From positions 1 to 17,095 of the IMG/VR virus record IMGVR_UViG_2778261641_000010: a DNA stretch of 17,095 nt. The stretch is one strand, 5' to 3'. This stretch comes from a virus. Taxonomy: Duplodnaviria > Heunggongvirae > Uroviricota > Caudoviricetes. Made by a program: the position numbers and the translations under genes. Positions 1 to 16,287 of the stretch are shown one piece after another. Positions within the stretch are counted from its first letter, which is position 1. Each line of letters opens with the position of its first letter. Under the pieces are notes generated by a model. The model ran no database searches, was not told the DNA's origin, and was given only the letters and a program-made list of their open reading frames with translations.

Positions 1-17
1 TTGCAGGAAACGGTAAA
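1..17. other. Inner end of the partner (left) crossover site / terminal inverted repeat of the invertible segment, truncated by the window edge
   Basis: Bases 1..17 are the reverse complement of 3027..3043 (1 mismatch). Bases 1..9 (ttgcaggaa) would be the last 9 bp of an inverted 26-bp site whose remainder lies left of the window. Confidence 0.5.
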
Positions 18-954
18 TCAGGCTTCTGGCGCATTACAGAAAAACCAGAACGGCGCAGATATTCCAGGAAAAGATACCTTCACCAAAAATATTGGTGCCT
101 GCCGCGCATACAGCCCATGGCTGAATATTGGTGGCGATAGTCAGGTCTGGACAACCGCGCAATTTATTTCGTGGCTGGAGAGTCAGGGAGCATTTAACCA
201 TCCTTACTGGATGTGCAAAGGCTCATGGGCTTATGCAAATAATAAGGTCATTACAGATACAGGTTGCGGAAATATTTGTCTTGCAGGTGCTGTGGTGGAA
301 GTTATTGGCACTCGCGGCGCAATGACCATACGCGTTACTACGCCGAGCACGTCCAGCGGTGGCGGAATTACTAACGCTCAATTCACTTATATTAATCATG
401 GTGATGCTTATGCTCCTGGCTGGCGACGAGACTACAACACGAAAAACCAGCAGCCTGCATTTGCTTTAGGGCAAACAGGACGCAGGGTCGCAAATGATAA
501 AGCTGTTGGCTGGAACTGGAATAGCGGCGTTTATGATGCAGATATCAGTGGCGCATCGACATTAATCCTCCACTTTAATATGAATGCGGGGAGTTGCCCT
601 GCTGTACAGTTCCGCGTGAATTATAAAAACGGCGGTATCTTTTATCGTTCAGCGCGTGATGGTTATGGCTTTGAAGCTAACTGGTCAGAGTTTTACACCA
701 CAACCCGCAAACCCTCTGCGGGGGATGTTGGTGCATATACGCAGGCAGAGTGTAACTCAAGGTTTATTACAGGTATTCGCCTGGGCGGTCTGTCATCTGT
801 TCAGACATGGAATGGTCCCGGCTGGTCTGACAGGTCAGGTTATGTCGTTACAGGTTCAGTTAACGGAAACCGTGATGAATTAATTGATACAACACAGGCA
901 AGGCCAATTCAGTATTGCATTAATGGAACGTGGTATAACGCGGGGAGTATTTAA
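1..954 (+). CDS. Alternative tail-fibre C-terminal (variable) domain cassette, 5'-truncated by the window edge; currently not joined to the stf constant part
   Basis: Open frame from base 1 to the stop at 952-954. The first 17 nt (ttgcaggaaacggtaaa, encoding LQETVN) are the reverse complement of 3027..3043 inside stf with one mismatch, then the sequence diverges. The C-terminus ...[14 protein letters not shown] matches the stf C-terminus ...FRPIQKYINGTWYN. It is followed 2 nt later by a tfa-type gene. No start codon or RBS of its own, as expected for a silent cassette. Confidence 0.7.
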
Positions 955-956
955 TT

Positions 957-1490
957 ATGATGCACTTAAAAAACATTACTGCTGGCAATCCTAAAACGAA
1001 AGAACAATACCAGCTAACAAAGCAATTTAACATCAAATGGCTTTATTCAGATGATGGAAAAAACTGGTATGAGGAACAAAAGAACTTTCAGCCTGATACG
1101 TTGAAAATGGTCTATGACCGTAACGGCGTTATTATTTGTATTGAAAAGGATGTTTCAGCAATTAATCCAGAAGGCGCAAGCGTCGTTGAGGTTCCTGATA
1201 TTACAGCAAATCGCCGGGCTGATATTTCGGGTAAATGGATGTTCAAAGATGGCGTAGTGGTAAAGCGAACTTATACCGAGGAAGAGCAGAGGCAGCAGGC
1301 GGAAAATGAAAAGCAAAGCCTGCTACAGCTCGTCAGGGATAAAACCCAGCTATGGGACTCACAGCTACGGCTGGGCATCATTTCCGACGAGAATAAACAA
1401 AAATTAACCGAGTGGATGCTCTATGCGCAGAAAGTCGAATCTACAGACACTTCCAGCCTGCCAGTAACGTTTCCCGAACAACCTGAATGA
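957..1490 (+). CDS. tfa: Tail fibre assembly protein (Tfa/Mu U-like chaperone), partner of the silent fibre-tip cassette
   Basis: 177-aa ORF. The N-terminal ~110 aa ([22 protein letters not shown]...[19 protein letters not shown]) are near-identical to the minus-strand Tfa at 1519..2046, and the C-terminal ~60 aa are divergent. It starts 2 nt after the upstream fibre-tip stop. Confidence 0.8.
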
Positions 1491-1493
1491 GAC

Positions 1494-1520
1494 AAGGCCC
1501 GATAGCGGGCCTTAATTTTT
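1494..1520 (+). terminator. Hairpin terminator between the two convergent tfa genes
   Basis: aaggcccg-atag-cgggcctt forms an 8-bp GC-rich stem with a 4-nt loop, followed on the plus strand by aatttttatt and preceded by an A-rich run on the minus strand. It lies exactly between the convergent stops at 1490 and 1519. Confidence 0.55.
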
Positions 1521-2046
1521 ATTCAGGCTTTTGTGGCCATTCAGGATTTGCCGTATCCACACGGCTGACCAGAACACTGTAGCGTTCCCATGACTCCAGT
1601 CGTGCGCGTTCCTCATCCGTCGCCATATTCAGCCTGACGGCGCGTTCCAGTGGCTGAATAATGCTTTCTGCTTCGGAAAGTAACGCGGCCTTTTGTGATT
1701 CTGCCTGTTGTTGCTGCTCATCTGTCGTATAAATCCGTTTAACTACAGTTCCGTCCTTAAACATCCACTTCCCTGAATCATCGGCGCGACGATTGGCTGT
1801 TATATCTGGAATCTCAACGACACTAAAGCCTTCGGGATTAAGCGTTGAGGCATCTCTGGTGATAGCGACAATAATATTATTTTCATCGTAAACAATCTTT
1901 ATTGTGTCTGGCTGAAAGTTCTTCACTTCCTCATACCAGTTTTTTCCGTCTTCGGACCATAACCAGATAACATCAAAATTCTTTGTTAGCTGATATTGCT
2001 CTTTTGTTTTTGGATTACCTGACTTAATGTTCTTTAAATGCTGCAT
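1519..2046 (-). CDS. tfa: Tail fibre assembly protein (Tfa) for the currently expressed fibre tip
   Basis: 175-aa ORF. ATG at 2046 lies 3 nt after the stf stop, with AGGTG upstream. The C-terminal motif ...[27 protein letters not shown] is typical of lambda Tfa / Mu U-family chaperones. Confidence 0.85.
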
Positions 2047-2049
2047 AAC

Positions 2050-5000
2050 TTACACCTGCGCAACGTTATACCATGTGCCATTGATGTATTTTTGTATCGG
2101 CCTGAAGATGGCTTCATCATCGCCATCTACTTCACCAATGATTCTTAATCCGGTAATCGTGTGTCCGGCTTTTTCATAACGACCACCACGCGCCATCAAT
2201 TGAACAACACGTGTGCCAAGTCGGACATCTCTCACATAGCGTGAGTCAAAATTGCCATAATTTCCGGGAATAATTTGCGCACCGCAAAGCCAGTTACCGT
2301 TATTGTCCATGTACGCCTGACCATCGGTGCCATTGGCTGTCCTTGAGTTATTAATCATGTAGATGCCAAATTGCTTGTTCCCCAGTCCACCTATCATGAA
2401 CTTGCGGTCAGCGTGATTCTGGCGAAGCAACGCCTGAGCGCTATCAGTGTTAACTATATTTTTCCCAAAGATAGCGTTGTTATCGCGCATCTGAATCCAC
2501 ATACCATTACTGCTGTTAATAGCAAAACGGTCTGAAAGCGTCTCCCCTGAAACATTAAGGCCACGCCCCATCGAAACAGCGCCAGTAGCGTTATTAATCC
2601 ATAATGGCCTTAATCCGTTATAAGTCCCCATGTTGTCACCGGAGTTTGTCAACATGAAGTATGTATTTGAACCATCATTACGAATAAAGAATCCGTAATT
2701 ACCATAAGCAATACGTAGGCCGTTTGCTGATTTTGATATGACTTCGCCATTTACAATGGCATTGACAAGAACATACAAAGCATCCCATTTAAGATTCATC
2801 AGGTCTTTTGTTGTGGTGCTTTGTTTGCTTCTCCATTTGAAATATTCATTGCCGTTGTCGCCTGTTTCAAACCACATGTATGAATCAGTATCGCTGTCGG
2901 CATCATTTTTAAAACCAATCTTCGCCCAGTCAGTATTTCGAATCCAGGCAAGGATTGAGTCATTTTCAAAAGTAAGCCCGCCGGACAAGGTATCGCCTGT
3001 CTTTTGAACGGCGTTACCAGCCTTGTTTACCGTTTCCTGTAAACCGAGGTATTCGATAACGGCGGCAACGGTCGATTTCGCAAGAATATCCCGCCCGACT
3101 TTTGTCAGGGTTGCCAGGCTGGCGACATCATTCCCCGTAAAATACGGAAACCTGTCTGCCGCAGTAGCAAGCCCGGCCAGCGCCGTCAGGGTGGCATCTT
3201 TCGGTTGCTTACCCGCAAGCGCGTTAGTCATGGTGGTCGCAAAATTCGGGTCGTTTCCCAGCGCCGCCGCCAGCTCGTTCAGCGTGTTCAGTGCGTCAGG
3301 TGACGAATCTACAAGGGCGGCAATCGCAGCCATAACGAAAGCCGTGCTTGCGATCTGAGTATTGTTAGTACCTTTTGGCGCAGTTGGTGTTGTTGGTGTT
3401 CCGGTCAGCGCCGGACTGTTCAGGGGCGCTTTCTTGTTCGTTTCATCCATTACCACCTTTACAGCTTTCGATGTCGCGGCCAGTGTTTCAGACGTGCTGT
3501 TGGTGGCGCTACTGAGCTGGACAAGGCCTTTTCGCGTCGTGCTGGCATCCTGCGCAGTATATTTACCGTTAGCAAGATCATACGCGGCCTTTACTGCTTT
3601 CGGCGTTGCAGCCTGCGTTTCAGACGTGCTGTTGGTTGCACTACTAAGCTGAACCACACCTTTTTTCGTCGTGCTCGCATCCTCAAGCGCCACGGCGGAT
3701 GCAATATCCTCTGCCCGTTTTGCCGCTGTCTCAGCGCGCGTTGCTGCAGATTCCGCCGTACTTTTGCTCTGAGCTGCTGCCGTCGCACTACCAGCAGCCT
3801 CTGTCGCCTTCGTGGATGCCGTCGTGGCGCTGCCCTTCGCTGCTGACGCCTGTCTGGTCGCCTCATCTTTTGAAGCAGACGCCGATGAGGCCGATGACGC
3901 CGCCGAACTGGCGGACGATGCCGCTGCCGTTTTTGAGGATTCTGCACGGGTTTCCGACACTTTCGCGTTCGTTTCGGATGTCTTCGCTGCGGAAGCTGAC
4001 CTCGCTGCTGCCGTGGCCTGTTCAGTGGCTTCGCCAGCCTTCGTTGTGGCTGTTGAAGCGGATGATGCGGCGCTTTCTGCCGACTTTCCGGCAGCGGTGG
4101 CACTGGCTGAGGCCTGCCCGGCACTTGTTGACGCGGCACTGGCAGATGATGCAGCCGCTGTTTTTGAGCCTGCCGCAGCTGAGGCACTCTGTCCCGCTGC
4201 CGTTTCAGAAGACCTGGCGTTCGTCTCGGACGTCTTTGCCGCCTTCGCGGAATTTCCTGCCGCCGTTGCCGAGGAAGCGGCACTACTGGCGCTTGATGAT
4301 GCGTTCGTTTCTGATGATTTCGCTGCCTCTTTTGAGGCCGCCGCATCCCAGGCTGAGGTGGCAGCTTCTGACGCCTTTGTGGTCGCTGCGGATGCAGAAG
4401 TGGCTGCAGATTTTTGTGACGCTGCCGCATTCGTTTCTGACGTTTTCGCCGCACCGGCACTGGTAGCTGCCGCGCTTTTTGAGGACTCTGCAGCGGCAGC
4501 ACTTTTTGATGCTTCAGTAGCCTTTGTTGATGCCGTTCCTGCGCTGGAAGACGCTGACTGAGCCGACGTCGCGGCCTGCCCGGCTGATGTGCTGGCTGCA
4601 CGTGCTGAGCCTGCAGCATCAGTCGCATGGGTTGCCGCCTCACGGGCTGATGTGCTGGCATCACTGGCTGACTTCTTCGCGGCTGCCGTGTTCTGTGCCA
4701 CCACGGACGCGTTACGCGCCACCTCTTCCACCATCAGCTCAAAACGGCGCAGTGCCTCCGGACGGGCGTCATCCTCCGTCATGGCACCGAGAAAATCATT
4801 CAGCGTACCGGGTCGGGAATCTTCATACACTGTGATGGTCCCGGCATGTGACGGCGGGAATCCTTCCACCAACAGAATAACGCTGTACTGACCGTACTCA
4901 ACGTCCATACTGTAACGCCCGGCTTCATCCGGATTTTCAGATGCCAGCGTGTTCACCACCACCGTGGTACTGTTACGTTTTGCTTTCAGCTGGATTGTGC

Positions 5001-5058
5001 AGTTCTGTACCGGTTTTCCTGTTCCGTCTTTCAGTACACCTGAAATTTTTACTGCCAT
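2050..5058 (-). CDS. stf: Side tail fibre protein Stf: lambda-like N-terminal constant part, long Ala/Ser/Thr-rich repetitive shaft, invertible C-terminal tip
   Basis: 1002 aa from the ATG at 5058 (MAVKISGVLKDGTGKPVQNCTIQLKA..., which I recognise as the lambda Stf N-terminus), with a GGAG RBS 5 nt upstream. The GTG two codons further upstream abuts the RBS and is rejected. Phage tail-fibre repeat motifs (DASTTxKGxVQLSSATNSTSE) occur twice. A gix-like site lies in frame at 3034..3059. Confidence 0.85.
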   Translation of the reverse strand: MAVKISGVLKDGTGKPVQNCTIQLKAKRNSTTVVVNTLASENPDEAGRYSMDVEYGQYSVILLVEGFPPSHAGTITVYEDSRPGTLNDFLGAMTEDDARPEALRRFELMVEEVARNASVVAQNTAAAKKSASDASTSAREAATHATDAAGSARAASTSAGQAATSAQSASSSAGTASTKATEASKSAAAAESSKSAAATSAGAAKTSETNAAASQKSAATSASAATTKASEAATSAWDAAASKEAAKSSETNASSSASSAASSATAAGNSAKAAKTSETNARSSETAAGQSASAAAGSKTAAASSASAASTSAGQASASATAAGKSAESAASSASTATTKAGEATEQATAAARSASAAKTSETNAKVSETRAESSKTAAASSASSAASSASSASASKDEATRQASAAKGSATTASTKATEAAGSATAAAQSKSTAESAATRAETAAKRAEDIASAVALEDASTTKKGVVQLSSATNSTSETQAATPKAVKAAYDLANGKYTAQDASTTRKGLVQLSSATNSTSETLAATSKAVKVVMDETNKKAPLNSPALTGTPTTPTAPKGTNNTQIASTAFVMAAIAALVDSSPDALNTLNELAAALGNDPNFATTMTNALAGKQPKDATLTALAGLATAADRFPYFTGNDVASLATLTKVGRDILAKSTVAAVIEYLGLQETVNKAGNAVQKTGDTLSGGLTFENDSILAWIRNTDWAKIGFKNDADSDTDSYMWFETGDNGNEYFKWRSKQSTTTKDLMNLKWDALYVLVNAIVNGEVISKSANGLRIAYGNYGFFIRNDGSNTYFMLTNSGDNMGTYNGLRPLWINNATGAVSMGRGLNVSGETLSDRFAINSSNGMWIQMRDNNAIFGKNIVNTDSAQALLRQNHADRKFMIGGLGNKQFGIYMINNSRTANGTDGQAYMDNNGNWLCGAQIIPGNYGNFDSRYVRDVRLGTRVVQLMARGGRYEKAGHTITGLRIIGEVDGDDEAIFRPIQKYINGTWYNVAQV
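3034..3059. other. gix/cix/pix-family 26-bp recombination (crossover) site for a Gin/Pin-type serine invertase, embedded in stf
   Basis: ttcctgtaaaccgaggtattcgataa: imperfect dyad around a central GA, and from memory a ~23/26 match to Mu gixL (TTCCTGTAAACCGAGGTTTTGGATAA). It sits exactly where the two fibre-tip sequences stop being alike. It encodes ...IEYLGLQE... in the stf frame. Confidence 0.7.
3437..3700 (-). repeat. Tandem direct repeat (2 x 132 bp, imperfect) inside stf encoding duplicated phage tail-fibre repeat motif
   Basis: The block cagacgtgctgttggt(g/t)gc(g/a)ctact(g/a)agctg appears at ~3489..3520 and ~3621..3652, 132 bp (44 codons) apart. Encoded peptides are DASTTKKGVVQLSSATNSTSETQAATPKAV and DASTTRKGLVQLSSATNSTSETLAATSKAV. 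Confidence 0.7.
3700..4730 (-). repeat. Low-complexity Ala/Ser/Thr/Lys-rich periodic region of stf (fibre shaft) with recurring AAKTSETNA-type units
   Basis: The translation shows AAKTSETNAAAS / AAKSSETNASSS / AAKTSETNARSS / AAKTSETNAKVS units. All three frames of both strands are open over much of this stretch because of the GC-rich repetitive composition. Confidence 0.6.
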
Positions 5059-5067
5059 ATTCACTCC

Positions 5068-11237: not shown

Positions 11238-11578
11238 CAGTGAGTGACCTCTTCAAAGGTACAGTTAAAATCGGTATACATGGCATTATCCGAAATGCTC
11301 CACTCCCTGCAGACAACCCGGACAGTCCTGTTGTGTTTTGGCGGACGCCACAAAAAAGCACGAATCCCGGCATGACGGGATAAAAAACTGTCCAGCGCGG
11401 CACGGGAATATTCATCTGTGACACGAAATACCGGTTTAAACGTTTTCAGATCCGCATTCAGACCACCAGCCCGTCGCTGTTCATATCCGTCACCAAACTT
11501 TACCGTAATAACTGATGGCTTTCGTGTCGTCTCCATCCCCTCACGGGGGATCCAGTTAAAAACTTCAGGCTCAGGCAC
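11237..11578 (-). CDS. M: Minor tail protein M
   Basis: Conserved FGDGYEQR and WRPP motifs as in lambda M (FGDGYSQR...). Preferred start is the GTG at 11578, which has AGGAGGA 7 nt upstream and gives ~113 aa; the alternative is the ATG at 11593. It overlaps the tape-measure stop (11571-11573) by a few nt. Confidence 0.78.
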   Translation of the reverse strand: MPEPEVFNWIPREGMETTRKPSVITVKFGDGYEQRRAGGLNADLKTFKPVFRVTDEYSRAALDSFLSRHAGIRAFLWRPPKHNRTVRVVCREWSISDNAMYTDFNCTFEEVTH

Positions 11579-14500
11579 TGTACAATCCTCCATCCCGACG
11601 CGATGACTGCATAATTGACACAACCCTGCTGTCGATCAGATCCACCAGCCCCCTGGCTGACTGCGTATCTATCTCGCCATTGCTCCCTTTATTCTGAATA
11701 CTGATGTGATACACGGGAGAATAAACAAATCCACCGCCACCATTCACATTGCCAATGGCTCTGACTCCAAGAGAGCCGTCCGCTGCCCGAGTCAGTGGCA
11801 TGATAGCTTCAGGCCCGGCCTCGCCCATCAGCCCGGCACCTTTCGCAAAAGCAAAATACGTCGGGGTATCCACAATGGTGTTACTGTAAGCACTCAAATT
11901 TGCCGATGTATAAACACCACCTTTTGCGTTTGCCACTGCACCGGAAAGCCAGTCGCCGACTGTACCAAGCCATCCTCCGGCACCGGACATGCTTTTGGAA
12001 AGTGACTTCAGCCCGTTAACGATGGCAGCGTTCATCAGAATTTTTGAAACTTCCTGGAGAATTGAACTCCCCCAGTTTCTCCAGTCCACAACATTTCCGG
12101 CCAGTGCATCGGAAATATTTGATACCAGCCCGTCCATAGTGGAAATGACAGCATCTGCCGCCTGCGAAGCATAATCAGTGGCACTGTCTGCCCAGTTCGT
12201 CAGCCCCTCCTGGAGTCCGGCATTCCAGTTACTGCGTAAAGCATCAGCCTTTGCATAATAATCCTGCTGATCGCTGAGACGCTCTTCCAGATATTTTTCA
12301 TTCAGCGATTTTTCCTGTTTCCACAGGGCTTCTTCAATTTCTCCGGCCTGATACTGTCTCAGCAGCTCGTTATTTTTCTGCTCAAACGCCTGCCGGATAC
12401 TCCACATTTCCTGGAGTCGTTCACGCATCCGTGAGCCTTCACCATATCCCAGCAACTGCGCGTCGTCAGATGCCCGGGCACTGGCATTACTGTCCGCCAG
12501 ACTGCTTTCATACGCGGCAAGCTGCTCACGAATCTTTTTCTGGTCGATGAGTGCCGCATTCTGTAAAAGCGTTTTTTTCTGCGCTTCTGACAGGGTTGAT
12601 AATTCGCCCTGACTGACCTGATATTTCATCTTAGCCAGTTCAGTATTCTGCCCTGCCAGTGCTATTTGTTCTTTTTGCTGTTTAATTAGCCGTTTATAAA
12701 TATCTTCTGTTTTTTCCGCTTCGGTCTTTTTATGCGCTTTGGGTTTATTTGCCTGGTTATTTCGCCAGGCATCCAGTGAGTTATTGATATAATTCTGTCT
12801 GGCTGTCTGATACGCCTCTCCCACAAAGCCGAGATCATCCGCAGCATAACCCAGTCGGGCACGCTCACGGGCTTCCCCCTTCAGGCGGGACAGAGCCAGT
12901 TCGCGCTCGCTGTTATTCAGTGCGGTCTGCTGTTTATCATCCAGGGTTGCCTGTGGTAGCCGTAATGGTGCATTCACCAGCCCCTGTCGCTGCTGAAGTA
13001 ATTCATTACCAAGCCCGAGAAGACGATTAAACTCGGTATGCTGCCCATTCATGATCAACAGGGACTGATACGCTTTGTTTTGTTCCGCCGCCTGTTGACG
13101 GATCAACGCCACCCGTCGCTCCTCCAGCCCGGCAAGCACATCCTGAATAGATTGCGCTTTGCCCTGCATTTGAGTGAGGCGAGACTGTTCAACTGCCAGT
13201 TGATTTGTTGCTTCTGCAAGCCCTTCTGTGACAGTTTTCACCGACGTCATATGGTTAATCATAAAACCGTTATCGGTTGTCCAGCCCGGGTTTGCCAGCA
13301 CATACTGATAGCCAGCAATTTTTTCCTGTAAGGATTTAATCTTACTTTTCTGCTCGTCAATTAACCTGTTTTGCTCATCAAGTGCCTGCCGCGTCTTTTC
13401 CTCATTATCTGACGCTTCAGGAAGCGACATTGCCGACGTTTTCTGGCGAATTTCGTCGATTGTTGCGGCATACTGGCGTGCAGATTCTCTGGCCTGCTCC
13501 TGATTCTGATACATCGTGTACCAGGCCGTCGCCCCCAGCATGACGAGTCCCGGCACACCACCAACCAACCCCAGCGCACCACTTAACAGACGACTCCCCA
13601 CTGACGTGACAGTATTCAGCGTTGTCTGTGCCGCTGTTCTGGCCGCAATATTACGGGTAAGTGACGCCTGGGCAGCTGTCAGCTTCGCTTCTGCTGCGGC
13701 CTGCCTTTCGGTACCGCGAGCAGCAACAACCGCCTGTTGCGCACGATAAACCGCCGCACGCGCCCTGGCGGTTGCTATCTGTGTCCCCCGAAGTTGCGCT
13801 TCAGCAAGAGCCACTTCGTTTCTGGCTGCAGTAATTAATCCGGCAGTTGCAGATCCAGCAGACGACGCCATATTGCCAAAATATCGGGCTACCCCGACGG
13901 CAACCAGTGCGCCAGCTGCAGCAGCCACGGTATCAATATTGTCTGCAACACCATTCAACACCCCGGTGAGTGTCTTTGTCACTCCGCTTGCCTCGTTCGC
14001 ACCACCAACCCAGGCCATAAAGGCGTTTTCAACTTTGGTTGCAGAGGATGAAACAGTATCAGGCATTGCTGCATATTCATCACGCAACGCCCCAAGCTGA
14101 CTAATCAGTGCAGGAACAACCTTATCGGCGGTCAGTTTTCCGTTATCCGCCATGGCTTTCAGATCCTTACGGGCAACACCCATTCCCGCAGCCAGCGCAC
14201 GAATAACACGATCGCCGTTCTCATTCACAGAGTTAAATTCTTCACCGCGCAGCACTCCCTGCGCCAGTGCCTGACTGAACTGCGTGATCACCGAACTGGC
14301 TTCTGCTGTACTGGCACCGGATAATTTCAGGCCCGTGGAGATCGCCTCGGTGACTTTCAGTACCTCCTCAGAACTGTAGCCATACTCCCGCATGGAAGCT
14401 GCAGAGCGGGCAAAAAGGCTGGCGTTATCAGAAAACGCCGTTCCCGTTCTCTGGCTGATTGCCATTAATTCACGTTGTGATACCTGAAAATCATCACTGG

Positions 14501-14816
14501 ACTGTGAAGCCTGCTTCAGGCGGGCATTTACTGAATTCCACTCATCGGCGAGAGAAATAAGATGACCGGTAGCAAAAGCTCCGGCAAATGCCCCCGCCAT
14601 ATTCAGTGCCGAAGATTTAGCTGTATTTATCTGATCCGTCACTTCTGCCAGTGCACGCCGCATTTCACGGGATGCAGCAGCGGACTGCCGGCCTCCGTTC
14701 TGCATGGTACGGTAGTAATCCTGCCCCATACGCGAAGCCCGGGAGATCTCTGACTGGAATGACCGGGAATTTGCCGAGATTTTAATAATCAGTTCACGTA
14801 ATGTCGCCACACTCAT
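11571..14816 (-). CDS. Tail tape measure protein
   Basis: 1081 aa, largely alpha-helical/coiled-coil-like composition (Ala/Gln/Leu/Glu-rich), with Gly-rich hydrophobic stretches. It lies between G/GT and M. GGAGA precedes the start (ATG at 14816 or the in-frame GTG two codons later). Confidence 0.9.
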   Translation of the reverse strand: MSVATLRELIIKISANSRSFQSEISRASRMGQDYYRTMQNGGRQSAAASREMRRALAEVTDQINTAKSSALNMAGAFAGAFATGHLISLADEWNSVNARLKQASQSSDDFQVSQRELMAISQRTGTAFSDNASLFARSAASMREYGYSSEEVLKVTEAISTGLKLSGASTAEASSVITQFSQALAQGVLRGEEFNSVNENGDRVIRALAAGMGVARKDLKAMADNGKLTADKVVPALISQLGALRDEYAAMPDTVSSSATKVENAFMAWVGGANEASGVTKTLTGVLNGVADNIDTVAAAAGALVAVGVARYFGNMASSAGSATAGLITAARNEVALAEAQLRGTQIATARARAAVYRAQQAVVAARGTERQAAAEAKLTAAQASLTRNIAARTAAQTTLNTVTSVGSRLLSGALGLVGGVPGLVMLGATAWYTMYQNQEQARESARQYAATIDEIRQKTSAMSLPEASDNEEKTRQALDEQNRLIDEQKSKIKSLQEKIAGYQYVLANPGWTTDNGFMINHMTSVKTVTEGLAEATNQLAVEQSRLTQMQGKAQSIQDVLAGLEERRVALIRQQAAEQNKAYQSLLIMNGQHTEFNRLLGLGNELLQQRQGLVNAPLRLPQATLDDKQQTALNNSERELALSRLKGEARERARLGYAADDLGFVGEAYQTARQNYINNSLDAWRNNQANKPKAHKKTEAEKTEDIYKRLIKQQKEQIALAGQNTELAKMKYQVSQGELSTLSEAQKKTLLQNAALIDQKKIREQLAAYESSLADSNASARASDDAQLLGYGEGSRMRERLQEMWSIRQAFEQKNNELLRQYQAGEIEEALWKQEKSLNEKYLEERLSDQQDYYAKADALRSNWNAGLQEGLTNWADSATDYASQAADAVISTMDGLVSNISDALAGNVVDWRNWGSSILQEVSKILMNAAIVNGLKSLSKSMSGAGGWLGTVGDWLSGAVANAKGGVYTSANLSAYSNTIVDTPTYFAFAKGAGLMGEAGPEAIMPLTRAADGSLGVRAIGNVNGGGGFVYSPVYHISIQNKGSNGEIDTQSARGLVDLIDSRVVSIMQSSRRDGGLYSA

Positions 14817-14826
14817 TCTCCGGACG

Positions 14827-14847
14827 AAAAAAACCGCCGAAGCGGTT
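14827..14847 (-). terminator. Short terminator/attenuator-like hairpin between GT and the tape measure gene
   Basis: Minus strand AACCGC-TTCG-GCGGTT (5-6 bp stem, UUCG-type loop) followed by TTTTTTT, then the GGAGA RBS of the tape measure gene. Confidence 0.4.
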
Positions 14848-14855
14848 ATGTTGAC

Positions 14856-15544
14856 TCACTGAGACACTATTAAAAGCGCGTTTTCCAGTCCGGCAAATGG
14901 ATCTGAGACGCCTTCTGTCTGCTCTTGTTCCCACTGAAGAAGCGCATCATTCAGTGGGACTTTGACACCCTGCGCACCGTAAACCGCAGAAACTATCTGG
15001 GCAGCCCGGATATCAGCCCGCTCGTCACCCAGCGGGCTGAACCTGTCAAATTCTGCCCACATCATGATTTCTGATGCGGACATTTCCCGGCGTAACTCTG
15101 ACAATGTGCGCCCCATCCTGAGCGCCAGCATCATCAGAAAACGCATCCCCGGAAGCTCTACTTTTTTTTAACCTCGCCGGCATCACTGATCAGTTCCAGA
15201 GACTGCCGAAGAAGCCGCGCATGCACCGGGCCATACACGGCAATCACCTGTTCACGATCATCCTCTGAAAATACAGGTTGCAGTCCGGTATCACACAGAA
15301 CATCAATGAACAGTTCAACATCTGCCTCCAGATTTCGGCGGGCGCGCTCCGCAACGGATAACGGTGTCTCATCATCTTTTGCTTTAACGATCTCCTGCCA
15401 GCGCAACCAGGCTTCTGCAGAAGGTTCCCGTAATACAACCGTTGCCCCTTCCCATTCAGGCACATCAACAGTTTTATGGCGAAACCCCGACATCGTTGCC
15501 AGTGCCAGATTGCGGATATTTTTAGTCATCACATCTATCCTCAT
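14856..15544 (-). CDS. Tail assembly chaperone GT fusion produced by programmed -1 ribosomal frameshift
   Basis: The ORF at 14856..15146 has codon phase exactly -1 relative to G. The G frame ends ...GTT AAA AAA AAG TAG, so a slip on A_AAA_AAG (15161..15167) continues K-V-E-L-P-G-M-R-F-L... to the stop at 14856. The downstream ORF has no plausible independent RBS. Confidence 0.65.
15158..15544 (-). CDS. Tail assembly chaperone G (0-frame product)
   Basis: 128 aa; the ATG at 15544 overlaps the major-tail stop (TAATG). An alternative start is the ATG at 15529, with GAGGA 8 nt upstream. Position immediately before the tape measure gene and the acidic C-terminal half fit a G-type chaperone. Confidence 0.75.
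   Translation of the reverse strand: MRIDVMTKNIRNLALATMSGFRHKTVDVPEWEGATVVLREPSAEAWLRWQEIVKAKDDETPLSVAERARRNLEADVELFIDVLCDTGLQPVFSEDDREQVIAVYGPVHARLLRQSLELISDAGEVKKK
15161..15167 (-). promoter_or_regulatory. -1 programmed ribosomal frameshift slippery heptamer A_AAA_AAG, directly followed by the 0-frame stop TAG
   Basis: Run of 8 A then G on the minus strand (plus strand c-tttttttt-a at 15161..15170); A_AAA_AAG is a classic slippery sequence (e.g. dnaX). Confidence 0.65.
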
Positions 15545-16248
15545 TAACTGACGGTAACAGTGCAGGAAGTGGAGGTCACCTTGTTAACAGGGCTTGCTGA
15601 ATCAGAAATCTCGCAGGTATACGCACCGGCATCACCTGATGCTGCTGATGCCTTACTGAATGTTGCCGCCGTCTGTCCGGAAACAGGAGAACTACCTTTC
15701 TTCCAGACATAAGAATAAGGCGGCACACCACCGGCAGCCTCAACCACCATTTCGAGTTTCGCTCCGGCAGAAACCTGCAGCGTGCTGTTTAAATCGACCT
15801 TCACTTTCAGCGGCTCTGTCGTCAGCACAGGTTTACCTTTCAGGCGCAGGGAAAACGTTGCAGCCACAACACCATTAGTTCCTGCAGACCAGGTATGCTG
15901 ACGCACCTCTGCCATAAAGGTAAATCCGTTGCCTGACGGAAAAATAACTTTAAAGCCATACGTGGTGTCATTGTCATAGGCACTGCGCAACGCGTTCTGG
16001 GCAGCATTGAGGTAAAAGTTGCCTGACATGGAAATCTCTGACGCGGCACCAAGGCCGTTAATATTTTCCTGCTCAACAGAACACAGCGTGGTGACATCAA
16101 TATCCTGCTTTTGTCCTGCGGTAAACTGCACCTCTTTGATTGTACAGCTCAGGCCAAGATAGCTGGCAGAATCCAGGGTTTCTGCTGTTACCGGTGCAGA
16201 CGAAATCATAATTTTCGTCAGTTGCGAACGCTCAAAATTAGAGGACAT
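15544..16248 (-). CDS. Major tail protein with C-terminal Ig-like (Big_2-type) domain
   Basis: 234 aa from the ATG at 16248 (MSSNFERS...), with AGGAGA 5 nt upstream. The ORF-track 5' extension runs through a terminator hairpin and is rejected. The C-terminal ~80 aa (...VSAGAKLEMVVEAAGGVPPYSYVWKKGSSPVSGQTAATFSKASAASGDAGAYTCEISDSASPVNKVTSTSCTVTVS) resemble an Ig-like decoration domain. It sits just upstream of G/GT. Confidence 0.8.
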   Translation of the reverse strand: MSSNFERSQLTKIMISSAPVTAETLDSASYLGLSCTIKEVQFTAGQKQDIDVTTLCSVEQENINGLGAASEISMSGNFYLNAAQNALRSAYDNDTTYGFKVIFPSGNGFTFMAEVRQHTWSAGTNGVVAATFSLRLKGKPVLTTEPLKVKVDLNSTLQVSAGAKLEMVVEAAGGVPPYSYVWKKGSSPVSGQTAATFSKASAASGDAGAYTCEISDSASPVNKVTSTSCTVTVS

Positions 16249-16260
16249 ACTCGTCTCCTG

Positions 16261-16287
16261 AAAATAAAAAACCCGCCAGCGGCGGGT
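16261..16287 (-). terminator. Rho-independent terminator-like hairpin in the leader of the major tail gene
   Basis: Minus strand ACCCGCC-GCT-GGCGGGT (7-bp GC stem) followed by TTTTTATTTT, then AGGAGA and the ATG of the major tail gene. Confidence 0.6.

Follow-up and report, generated by a model that had tools for sequence, protein, structure and literature searches.

Does the short reading frame that follows the tail assembly chaperone gene of this prophage stand by itself, or is it joined to that gene by ribosomes slipping back one base on a run of adenines, and is the signal in any way particular to this locus? We consider that, in this E. coli prophage of the HK97/lambda type, the tail assembly chaperone gene is subject to a programmed -1 ribosomal frameshift, and assign to this reading a probability of about 0.9. 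The G/GT frameshift is supported by the anatomy of the sequence, by protein family assignments, by conservation of the arrangement and by the 7% frameshifting published for the cassette from Stx prophages. A frameshift with this signal is already known, and it is ordinary for its gene family.

In the window (the whole stretch of DNA that was analysed, 17,095 nt), gene G, the segment T and the recoding signal are all located on the minus strand; the sequence-only reading, from which the question arose, had left the strand unstated. In the direction of transcription, the features are as follows.

15544..16248, minus strand: gene for the major tail protein, equivalent to V, whose C terminus has an Ig domain; the Pfam matches to tail-tube and Ig families are weak.
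15158..15529, minus strand: gene G, tail assembly chaperone, 123 aa plus TAG; Pfam PF06222, start with a Shine-Dalgarno sequence (SD).
15168..15170, minus strand: stop codon TAA of the -1 frame, just ahead of the shifted codons.
15162..15169, minus strand: A8 homopolymer enclosing the heptamer, a possible minor RNA polymerase slippage site.
15161..15167, minus strand: slippery heptamer A_AAA_AAG, with AAA in the P site and AAG in the A site when read in the 0 frame.
14856..15167, minus strand: T segment, translated in the -1 frame once the slip has occurred; Pfam PF06223, TGA at 14858..14856.
15158..15160, minus strand: TAG, the 0-frame stop of G, directly 3' of the heptamer.
15077..15151, minus strand: predicted downstream hairpin, seen in this sequence only; not conserved, and a role as stimulator is unsupported.
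14826..14847, minus strand: hairpin AACCGC-TTCG-GCGGTT with a T7 run behind it, resembling an intrinsic terminator, in the gap that separates T from the tape measure gene.
11571..14816, minus strand: tape measure gene (H equivalent), 1081 aa; Pfam PF06120, PF20155 and PF09718, HK97 TLTM domain.

Read 5' to 3' on the minus strand, the junction is ...GAT GCC GGC GAG GTT AAA AAA AAG TAG AGC TTC CGG GGA TGC GTT TTC TGA..., and the translation of the G ORF (15544..15158) ends with ...DAGEVKKK*. The end of this ORF, ...GTT AAA AAA AAG TAG, was thus seen just as the sequence-only reading had given it, and a frame comparison agreed with its placement of the downstream ORF (15146..14856) in the -1 phase relative to G. 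Both frames are open for 10 nt only, being limited by the -1-frame TAA and the 0-frame TAG, and the heptamer is therefore the sole position where a -1 shift joins G and T. AAAAAAG was counted five times on both strands of the window against 2.7 expected, so the motif by itself is not rare; the chance of finding the heptamer in the exact frame within the 10-nt overlap was roughly estimated as ~1e-4 per position.

According to the proposed mechanism, most ribosomes would translate G (123 aa) and end at the TAG. A minority would slip one base back with two tRNA-Lys(UUU), one on AAA in the P site and the other on AAG in the A site; these tRNAs would re-pair on AAA AAA and reading would resume with GUA GAG CUU CCG GGG AUG..., giving ...EVKKK-VELPGMRFLMM... 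at the junction, the same peptide as had been proposed earlier, and a G-T fusion of 224 aa as the product.

The family assignments agree with this layout. G matched PF06222 (Phage_TAC_1) with its residues 1-123 over the entire profile (positions 1-124 of 124; E 9.7e-58, 193.9 bits against a cut-off of 25). T, whose segment translates as KK VELPG MRFLMMLALRMGRTL...IVSQ, matched PF06223 (Phage_tail_T) at residues 151-219 of the fusion (E 1.2e-18, 67.7 bits against a cut-off of 25.9). The length of the fusion depends on the start of G. The mechanically called ORF reaches back to ATG 15544, a codon that shares bases with the stop of the major tail gene; counted from there, the previously suggested length of about 229 aa would hold. 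ATG 15529, on the other hand, is preceded by a GAGGA Shine-Dalgarno sequence 8 nt upstream, is where RefSeq and phage Evi annotations let the gene begin, and already allows coverage of the full PF06222 profile; the fusion is therefore more probably of 224 aa, counted from ATG 15529.

The gene order on the minus strand is the major tail gene (16248..15544, its RefSeq start mapping to position 16248 of the window), G (15529..15158), T (to 14856) and the tape measure gene (14816..11571). A tail completion gene is also present upstream of G, the tape measure gene is followed by lambda-like M, L, K, I, J, Lom, tail fibre and Tfa genes, and the G/T pair thus sits inside a complete lambdoid tail module. 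By analogy with lambda, the tape measure protein is expected to be the binding partner of G and GT, and the major tail protein to be the partner of the T domain. Four hallmarks of the G/GT family were found at the locus: the location between the major tail and tape measure genes, the -1 overlap, the framed slip site and the conservation across homologues. The -1 frameshift of G/GT in long-tailed phages was described as a conserved class by Xu, Hendrix & Duda 2004.

To assess conservation, 28 relatives were compared, some from phages and others from bacterial genomes, in which the identity of G ranged from 100% down to ~29%. A scan of genome contigs gave 15 loci only, viral contigs provided near-identical copies only, and a phage collection was added for diversity. 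T was located in the -1 frame in 27 of the 28 relatives, the exception being a Leclercia locus with a disrupted G, and the slip lysine was fixed in position, in line with the earlier statement that the G-T frameshift is conserved among long-tailed phages. The slip sites have as their common core a lysine codon, A_AAG, positioned in the A site; all 19 relatives checked have it (as A_AAC in Halomonas), and its distance from the T motif does not vary. In enterobacterial relatives, the -1 frame after the slip lysine reads V-x-x-P and then, at seven residues, F-L-M-x-L-A-L-R-x-G-R; in most relatives the pattern from this lysine onwards is V-x-x-P-x-x-x-F-L-M-x-L-A-L-R-x-G-R/K-T-L. The conservation of V-x-x-P...F-L-M points to protein-level selection acting on the -1 frame from the first shifted codon onward. 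The 0-frame continuation after the slip site varies freely among the relatives (stop, Ser or Leu), with the 0-frame stop positioned from 0 to 11 codons downstream, and the length of the A-run, from A3 to A9, is not conserved either. The slip sites and the distances to the 0-frame stop were distributed as follows.

A_AAA_AAG, stop at 0 codons: window clade, Stx prophages, two Yersinia loci (L099 and L100).
A_AAA_AAG, stop at 1 codon: Yersinia.
A_AAA_AAG, stop at 4 codons: Xenorhabdus.
A_AAA_AAG, stop at 8 codons: Serratia, Pseudomonas.
A_AAA_AAG, stop at 10-11 codons: Burkholderia phages.
G_GGA_AAG, stop at 1 codon: HK542.
G_GAA_AAG (non-canonical), stop at 5 codons: HK97 type.
A_GAA_AAG, stop at 0 codons: Yersinia L098.
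A_GCA_AAG, stop at 0 codons: Klebsiella.
A_AAA_AAC, stop at 0 codons: Halomonas.

Within this gene family, A_AAA_AAG is the slip site met most often and the abutting stop recurs, hence neither marks the locus as special. The sequence-only reading had singled out the dnaX-type heptamer and the stop in the very next codon; both are indeed present, but neither is unusual, since Stx prophages and Yersinia L099 and L100 have them likewise. It should be added that the A_AAG tetramer was ranked among the most shift-prone ones by Sharma et al. (PMC4066793), and that the orthologues in HK97, HK446 and Bcep176 carry a -1 frameshift in their annotation.

The same comparison bears on the possibility that T is made as a separate protein of 96 aa from ATG 15146, where the mechanically listed T ORF starts, either by its own initiation or by termination-reinitiation, with the heptamer being incidental. 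This codon is situated 11 nt past the TAG, which leaves room for some reinitiation producing free T, and public annotations do give 'phage tail assembly protein T' or DUF4035 an entry of its own. However, the position of ATG 15146 is occupied by V, I, T or Q in relatives, so that the ATG is not conserved, yet the five -1-frame codons before it (V-x-x-P-G) are. The earlier remark that the T ORF lacks a credible ribosome-binding site was likewise confirmed, as the sole upstream element is an SD-like GGGG that touches ATG 15146 with a spacing of 0. Furthermore, annotation and literature give GT fusions as the sole form in which the T segments of lambda and HK97 are expressed, and the orthologous Stx cassette does frameshift. 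Independent expression of T hence appears to us quite improbable.

Among the known systems, the closest one is that of the Stx prophages (ECs1801-type; Stx2 phage 1717), where G is 68% and T ~75% identical to those of the window and both belong to the same Pfam families. As in the window, TAG comes straight after A_AAA_AAG, and T occupies the -1 frame. The two differ in the codon before the heptamer, AGA (A6) in Stx prophages versus AAA (A8) in the window, and in the overlap, 25 nt versus 10 nt; furthermore, the Stx prophage has no ATG at the position of ATG 15146. HK97 gp13/gp14 resemble the window in having PF06222 in G (64% identical), PF06223 in T and PF06120 in the tape measure protein, in the -1 frame of T and in an equal spacing from the slip lysine to the FLM.LALRMGR motif. 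In HK97, unlike the window, the site is CGG GAA AAG (non-canonical G_GAA_AAG), the stop lies five codons on, and a moron gene, gp15, is inserted between T and H.

Phage lambda shares with the window the order V-G-T-H, T in the -1 frame, PF06223 and the lysine AAG in the A site (lambda GCG GGA AAG), as well as valine as the first residue after the shift and the seven-residue spacing to F..L.LA.EMGR; its slip site is a different one, G_GGA_AAG, and the stop comes five codons later. Pairwise BLASTP of the T segment of the window against lambda T was not significant, and their homology rests on the shared Pfam family and the motif. The lambda G/GT system was described by Levin et al. 1993 and by Xu, Hendrix & Duda 2004, 2013 and 2014. 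In the lambda model, G and GT are placed on the tape measure, T recruits V, the ratio is about 30:1, and the virion contains neither of the two (PMC5009743). By analogy, many copies of G and few of GT would coat the tape measure protein encoded here, the T domain would recruit the major tail protein, and both G and GT would be absent from the finished virion.

E. coli dnaX has the heptamer A_AAA_AAG in common with the window. In dnaX, the signal also includes an SD-like element ~10 nt ahead of the heptamer and a strong hairpin after it, and frameshifting amounts to ~50%. The window, in contrast, has an SD-like GAGG 4 nt upstream, no conserved hairpin and no Rfam match; in terms of the tripartite signal of the dnaX type, the heptamer is present, and the upstream SD and a conserved stem-loop 5-9 nt after the heptamer are absent. 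The outcome also differs, as the shift shortens the product in dnaX and lengthens it in the window. The basis of the slip is common to both, namely E. coli tRNA-Lys(UUU) on AAG (PMC3711429). A tRNA-Lys with the anticodon CUU, encoded by the prophage and suppressing the slip, was considered and rejected, as the one in a prophage with an identical G/T region has the anticodon UUU.

Related signals have been assayed. In Antonov et al. 2013, 41 HK97-like genes make up a 'phage tail assembly chaperone' cluster ('Phage_TAC'), to which the Stx-prophage genes belong, and two of its cassettes were tried in E. coli with a GST-MBP reporter (PMC3711429). The A_AAA_AAG_TAG cassette of the Stx-prophage type gave 7% frameshifting in E. 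coli (PMC3711429 Table S2) and the GCG_GGA_AAG_CCG_TAA cassette of the HK542 type gave 6% (PMC3711429). The former is identical to the site of Stx2 phage 1717, in a gene orthologous to G of the window and 68% identical to it. In Sharma et al. 2014, the cluster A_AAA_AAG_25 (53 genes, ECs1801, tail assembly chaperone) was classified as a 'true' case, and a lacZ reporter produced 0.29% with the bare heptamer, 4.3% when IS911 stimulators were present and 39% when the IS3 pseudoknot was (PMC4066793 supplement). As the bare heptamer reached only 0.29% in one lacZ reporter, the level attained here is uncertain; the 7% of the Stx cassette set against this 0.29% hints at some local help, with the proviso that the two reporters differ. 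The same frameshift level and the same chaperone function may be inferred for this locus.

The A8 run itself required attention, as a miscounted homopolymer could split one true ORF in two, or the locus could be a decaying pseudogene. The sequence-only reading had named such an error as one finding that would overturn it, and the error is excluded: GTT-A8-G-TAG was identical in 82 of 82 close relatives, and it is read in the window, in Evi, in 606R7 and in 80 of 80 IMG/VR loci. The exact 224-aa fusion was called as a single gene on four contigs, all with A9, which would speak for a miscount; against these four, separate G and T proteins were found each on at least 1000 contigs. In one of the four, a second homopolymer expansion, from A7 to A8, breaks the tape measure gene, which indicates a sequencing error in that contig. 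The A9 contigs are either homopolymer errors or rare slippage alleles, in both cases outside the norm. Moreover, 902 of 5426 complete E. coli genomes contain the region in identical or near-identical form, and the layout with two ORFs is kept across genera, so that an artefact or decay is hardly credible as an explanation of the locus.

A genuine run of this kind could also make RNA polymerase stutter on the T8 template and add one A, as the main route to the fusion or, more plausibly, as a minor addition to it. An A9 transcript, GTT AAA AAA AAA GTA GAG..., would yield the same protein, ...EVKKKVELPG..., as the -1 ribosomal frameshift. Runs of more than seven A are among the listed sites of programmed transcriptional realignment, and in one series, from another gene family, the frameshift yield grew with the A-run, from 10% with 7 As to 40% with 9 As and 63% with 11 As (PMC3711429); slippage is efficient at runs of 9 (PMC5009743). 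The four rare A9 contigs, too, suggest that the run is slippage-prone at some level, although one of them, with the tape measure gene also broken, looks like a sequencing error. What is conserved across the family, however, is the framed heptamer and not the length of the run: Stx and Burkholderia sites have A6, those of the HK97 type A4 and Klebsiella A3, all with T in the -1 frame. The Stx cassette with its A6 already gives 7%, and the A8 site differs from it solely by AAA (K) in place of AGA (R). The run in the window, A8 and not conserved, is also shorter than the 9 or more of documented bacterial cases. We therefore regard polymerase slippage as an unlikely alternative to the ribosomal frameshift, and a small contribution of it to the fusion as possible.

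As to what might assist the ribosomal frameshift, the sequence-only reading had suggested a check for a downstream stimulatory structure within 15100..15160; this stretch, when folded, had z = 0.0 and was no better than shuffles. A fold of 116 nt with the downstream hairpin had z = -2.2. RNAalifold on 20 relatives returned 0 consensus pairs downstream of the heptamer, the hairpin of the window was paired in 57% of cells across relatives with no covariation, and a local hairpin derived from 61-nt folds of the window and Stx was paired in 55% of cells, below the shuffle mean. A conserved stimulatory RNA structure was rejected on these grounds. The Rfam scan of 14700..15700 with E up to 10 resulted in chance-level matches only, far below gathering scores. 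An SD-like stimulator ~10-14 nt upstream of the heptamer was absent, the only candidate being GAGG at 15175..15172, which ends 4 nt before the heptamer; the upstream family consensus, GAnGCnGAA, is without an SD-like element.

The remaining mechanistic point is thus what lifts the efficiency above that of the bare heptamer. One speculative candidate, to which we give little credence, is the abutting stop as a selected tuning element, possibly together with A8 through low-level transcriptional slippage. A ribosome awaiting RF1 at the UAG, with tRNA-Lys on AAG in the P site, would get a second chance to slip; if true, this could account for ~7% of the cassette versus 0.29% of the bare heptamer without any conserved RNA structure. 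In ~6 of 12 lineages, which are not independent, the stop follows the slip site with no codon between them, as compared to a rough expectation of ~15%, based on the choice of Val codons. On the contrary, sites of the HK542 type and of lambda reach 4-6% with the stop 1-5 codons off. In E. coli, placing a stop instead of the next codon after the HIV heptamer lowered frameshifting, and overproduction of RF2 abolished it (PMC4373837). The idea that a 3' stop stimulates -1 frameshifting in E. coli was dropped, as the opposite holds for the HIV heptamer (PMC4373837).

The window represents a very common E. coli prophage of the HK97/lambda type. The 821-bp G/T region was present in the 902 genomes mentioned above, in some of them with 100% identity, and it is 98.9% identical to that of phages Evi and phi467. 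In terms of biology, the locus brings no novelty: as in lambda, correct tail assembly is expected to require the G:GT ratio that results from the slip. The practical value lies in annotation. In public records, 'phage tail assembly chaperone' stands as one gene and 'phage tail assembly protein T' (or DUF4035) as another; the RefSeq/GenBank records of G and T are without a slippage feature and omit the GT fusion, which should be entered as a ribosomal-slippage product.

It should also be added that the terminator-like hairpin at 14826..14847 is part of the context and lies outside the recoding signal; in HK97, putative terminators are annotated at equivalent positions.

The annotated frameshift site between genes gp13 and gp14 of HK97 (locus L003, 1333-1341) reads CGG GAA AAG in the 0 frame; it represents a non-canonical G_GAA_AAG, on which the P-site tRNA-Glu would re-pair on GGA. 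Sites of the HK97 type comprised, besides L003, loci L004, L087-L090, L092 and L108. A canonical P-site slip was also absent in the orthologues from Klebsiella (A_GCA_AAG) and Yersinia (L098, A_GAA_AAG), and the A-site A_AAG was the only slip element universal in the tail chaperone family (AAC in Halomonas). The sole compared relative without the 0/-1 relationship between G and T was that of Leclercia adecarboxylata NCTC13032 (L091, 1501-1900), where G ends prematurely and is followed by an HK97-type slip region in a different frame, probably reflecting prophage decay or an indel.

In four Logan/ENA contigs (L111-L114), the run of eight A residues that contains the slip heptamer is replaced by nine, so that the G-T fusion is encoded as a single in-frame gene. 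In L111 the tape measure gene is split as well, by an expansion from A7 to A8. The additional A in these contigs is probably a homopolymer sequencing error; it is also possible that the contigs carry real alleles arisen by replication slippage, or that they were assembled from RNA-derived reads.

Within the late operon, the block of the probable major tail gene (V), G and T is flanked by two strong hairpins resembling intrinsic terminators:

16287..16261, minus strand, terminator-like hairpin upstream of ATG 16248, the probable start of the major tail gene
14847..14826, minus strand, terminator-like hairpin located after T and before the tape measure gene (H)

Putative terminators are annotated at the equivalent positions in HK97. 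The two hairpins may set the high stoichiometry of V and G versus the low one of H, or Q-type antitermination may be needed there. A minor point is the ambiguous start codon of the tape measure gene: GGAGA immediately abuts the first ATG of the reading frame, 14816(-), whereas RefSeq places the start at GTG 14810(-), which gives normal Shine-Dalgarno spacing.

Outside the window, a tRNA cluster was found in the prophage of E. coli AR_0089 (L109), the G/T region of which is 100% identical to that of the window:

L109 4807-4883, Met(CAT)-Lys(UUU)-Thr-Gly tRNA cluster, located downstream of gene Q

The anticodon loop of its putative tRNA-Lys, CCUUUAA, is unusual in that position 33 is C rather than U. 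The cluster was also present in Evi, 606R7, 689R5 and the PPompW prophages, and phi467 was devoid of its Met-Lys half. In Stx phages, stretches annotated as tRNA-Arg/tRNA-Ile are about 92% identical to this Met-Lys half.

The left end of the window, 1-3059, looks like an invertible tail-fibre segment for host range, with the following features:

3034-3059, candidate crossover site TTCCTGTAAACCGAGGTATTCGATAA, inside the tail-fibre gene 2050..5064(-)
1-954, plus strand, alternative fibre C-terminus (gp37_C)
957-1490, plus strand, first tail-fibre assembly gene of a convergent pair
1519-2046, minus strand, second tail-fibre assembly gene of this pair

The candidate site resembles crossover sites of the Gin/Cin/Pin type. 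An inverted partner arm is located at the extreme start of the window (1-41; 41 nt, 73% complementary), and the alternative C-terminus and both assembly genes lie between the two arms. The corresponding invertase gene would be located past the left edge of the window.
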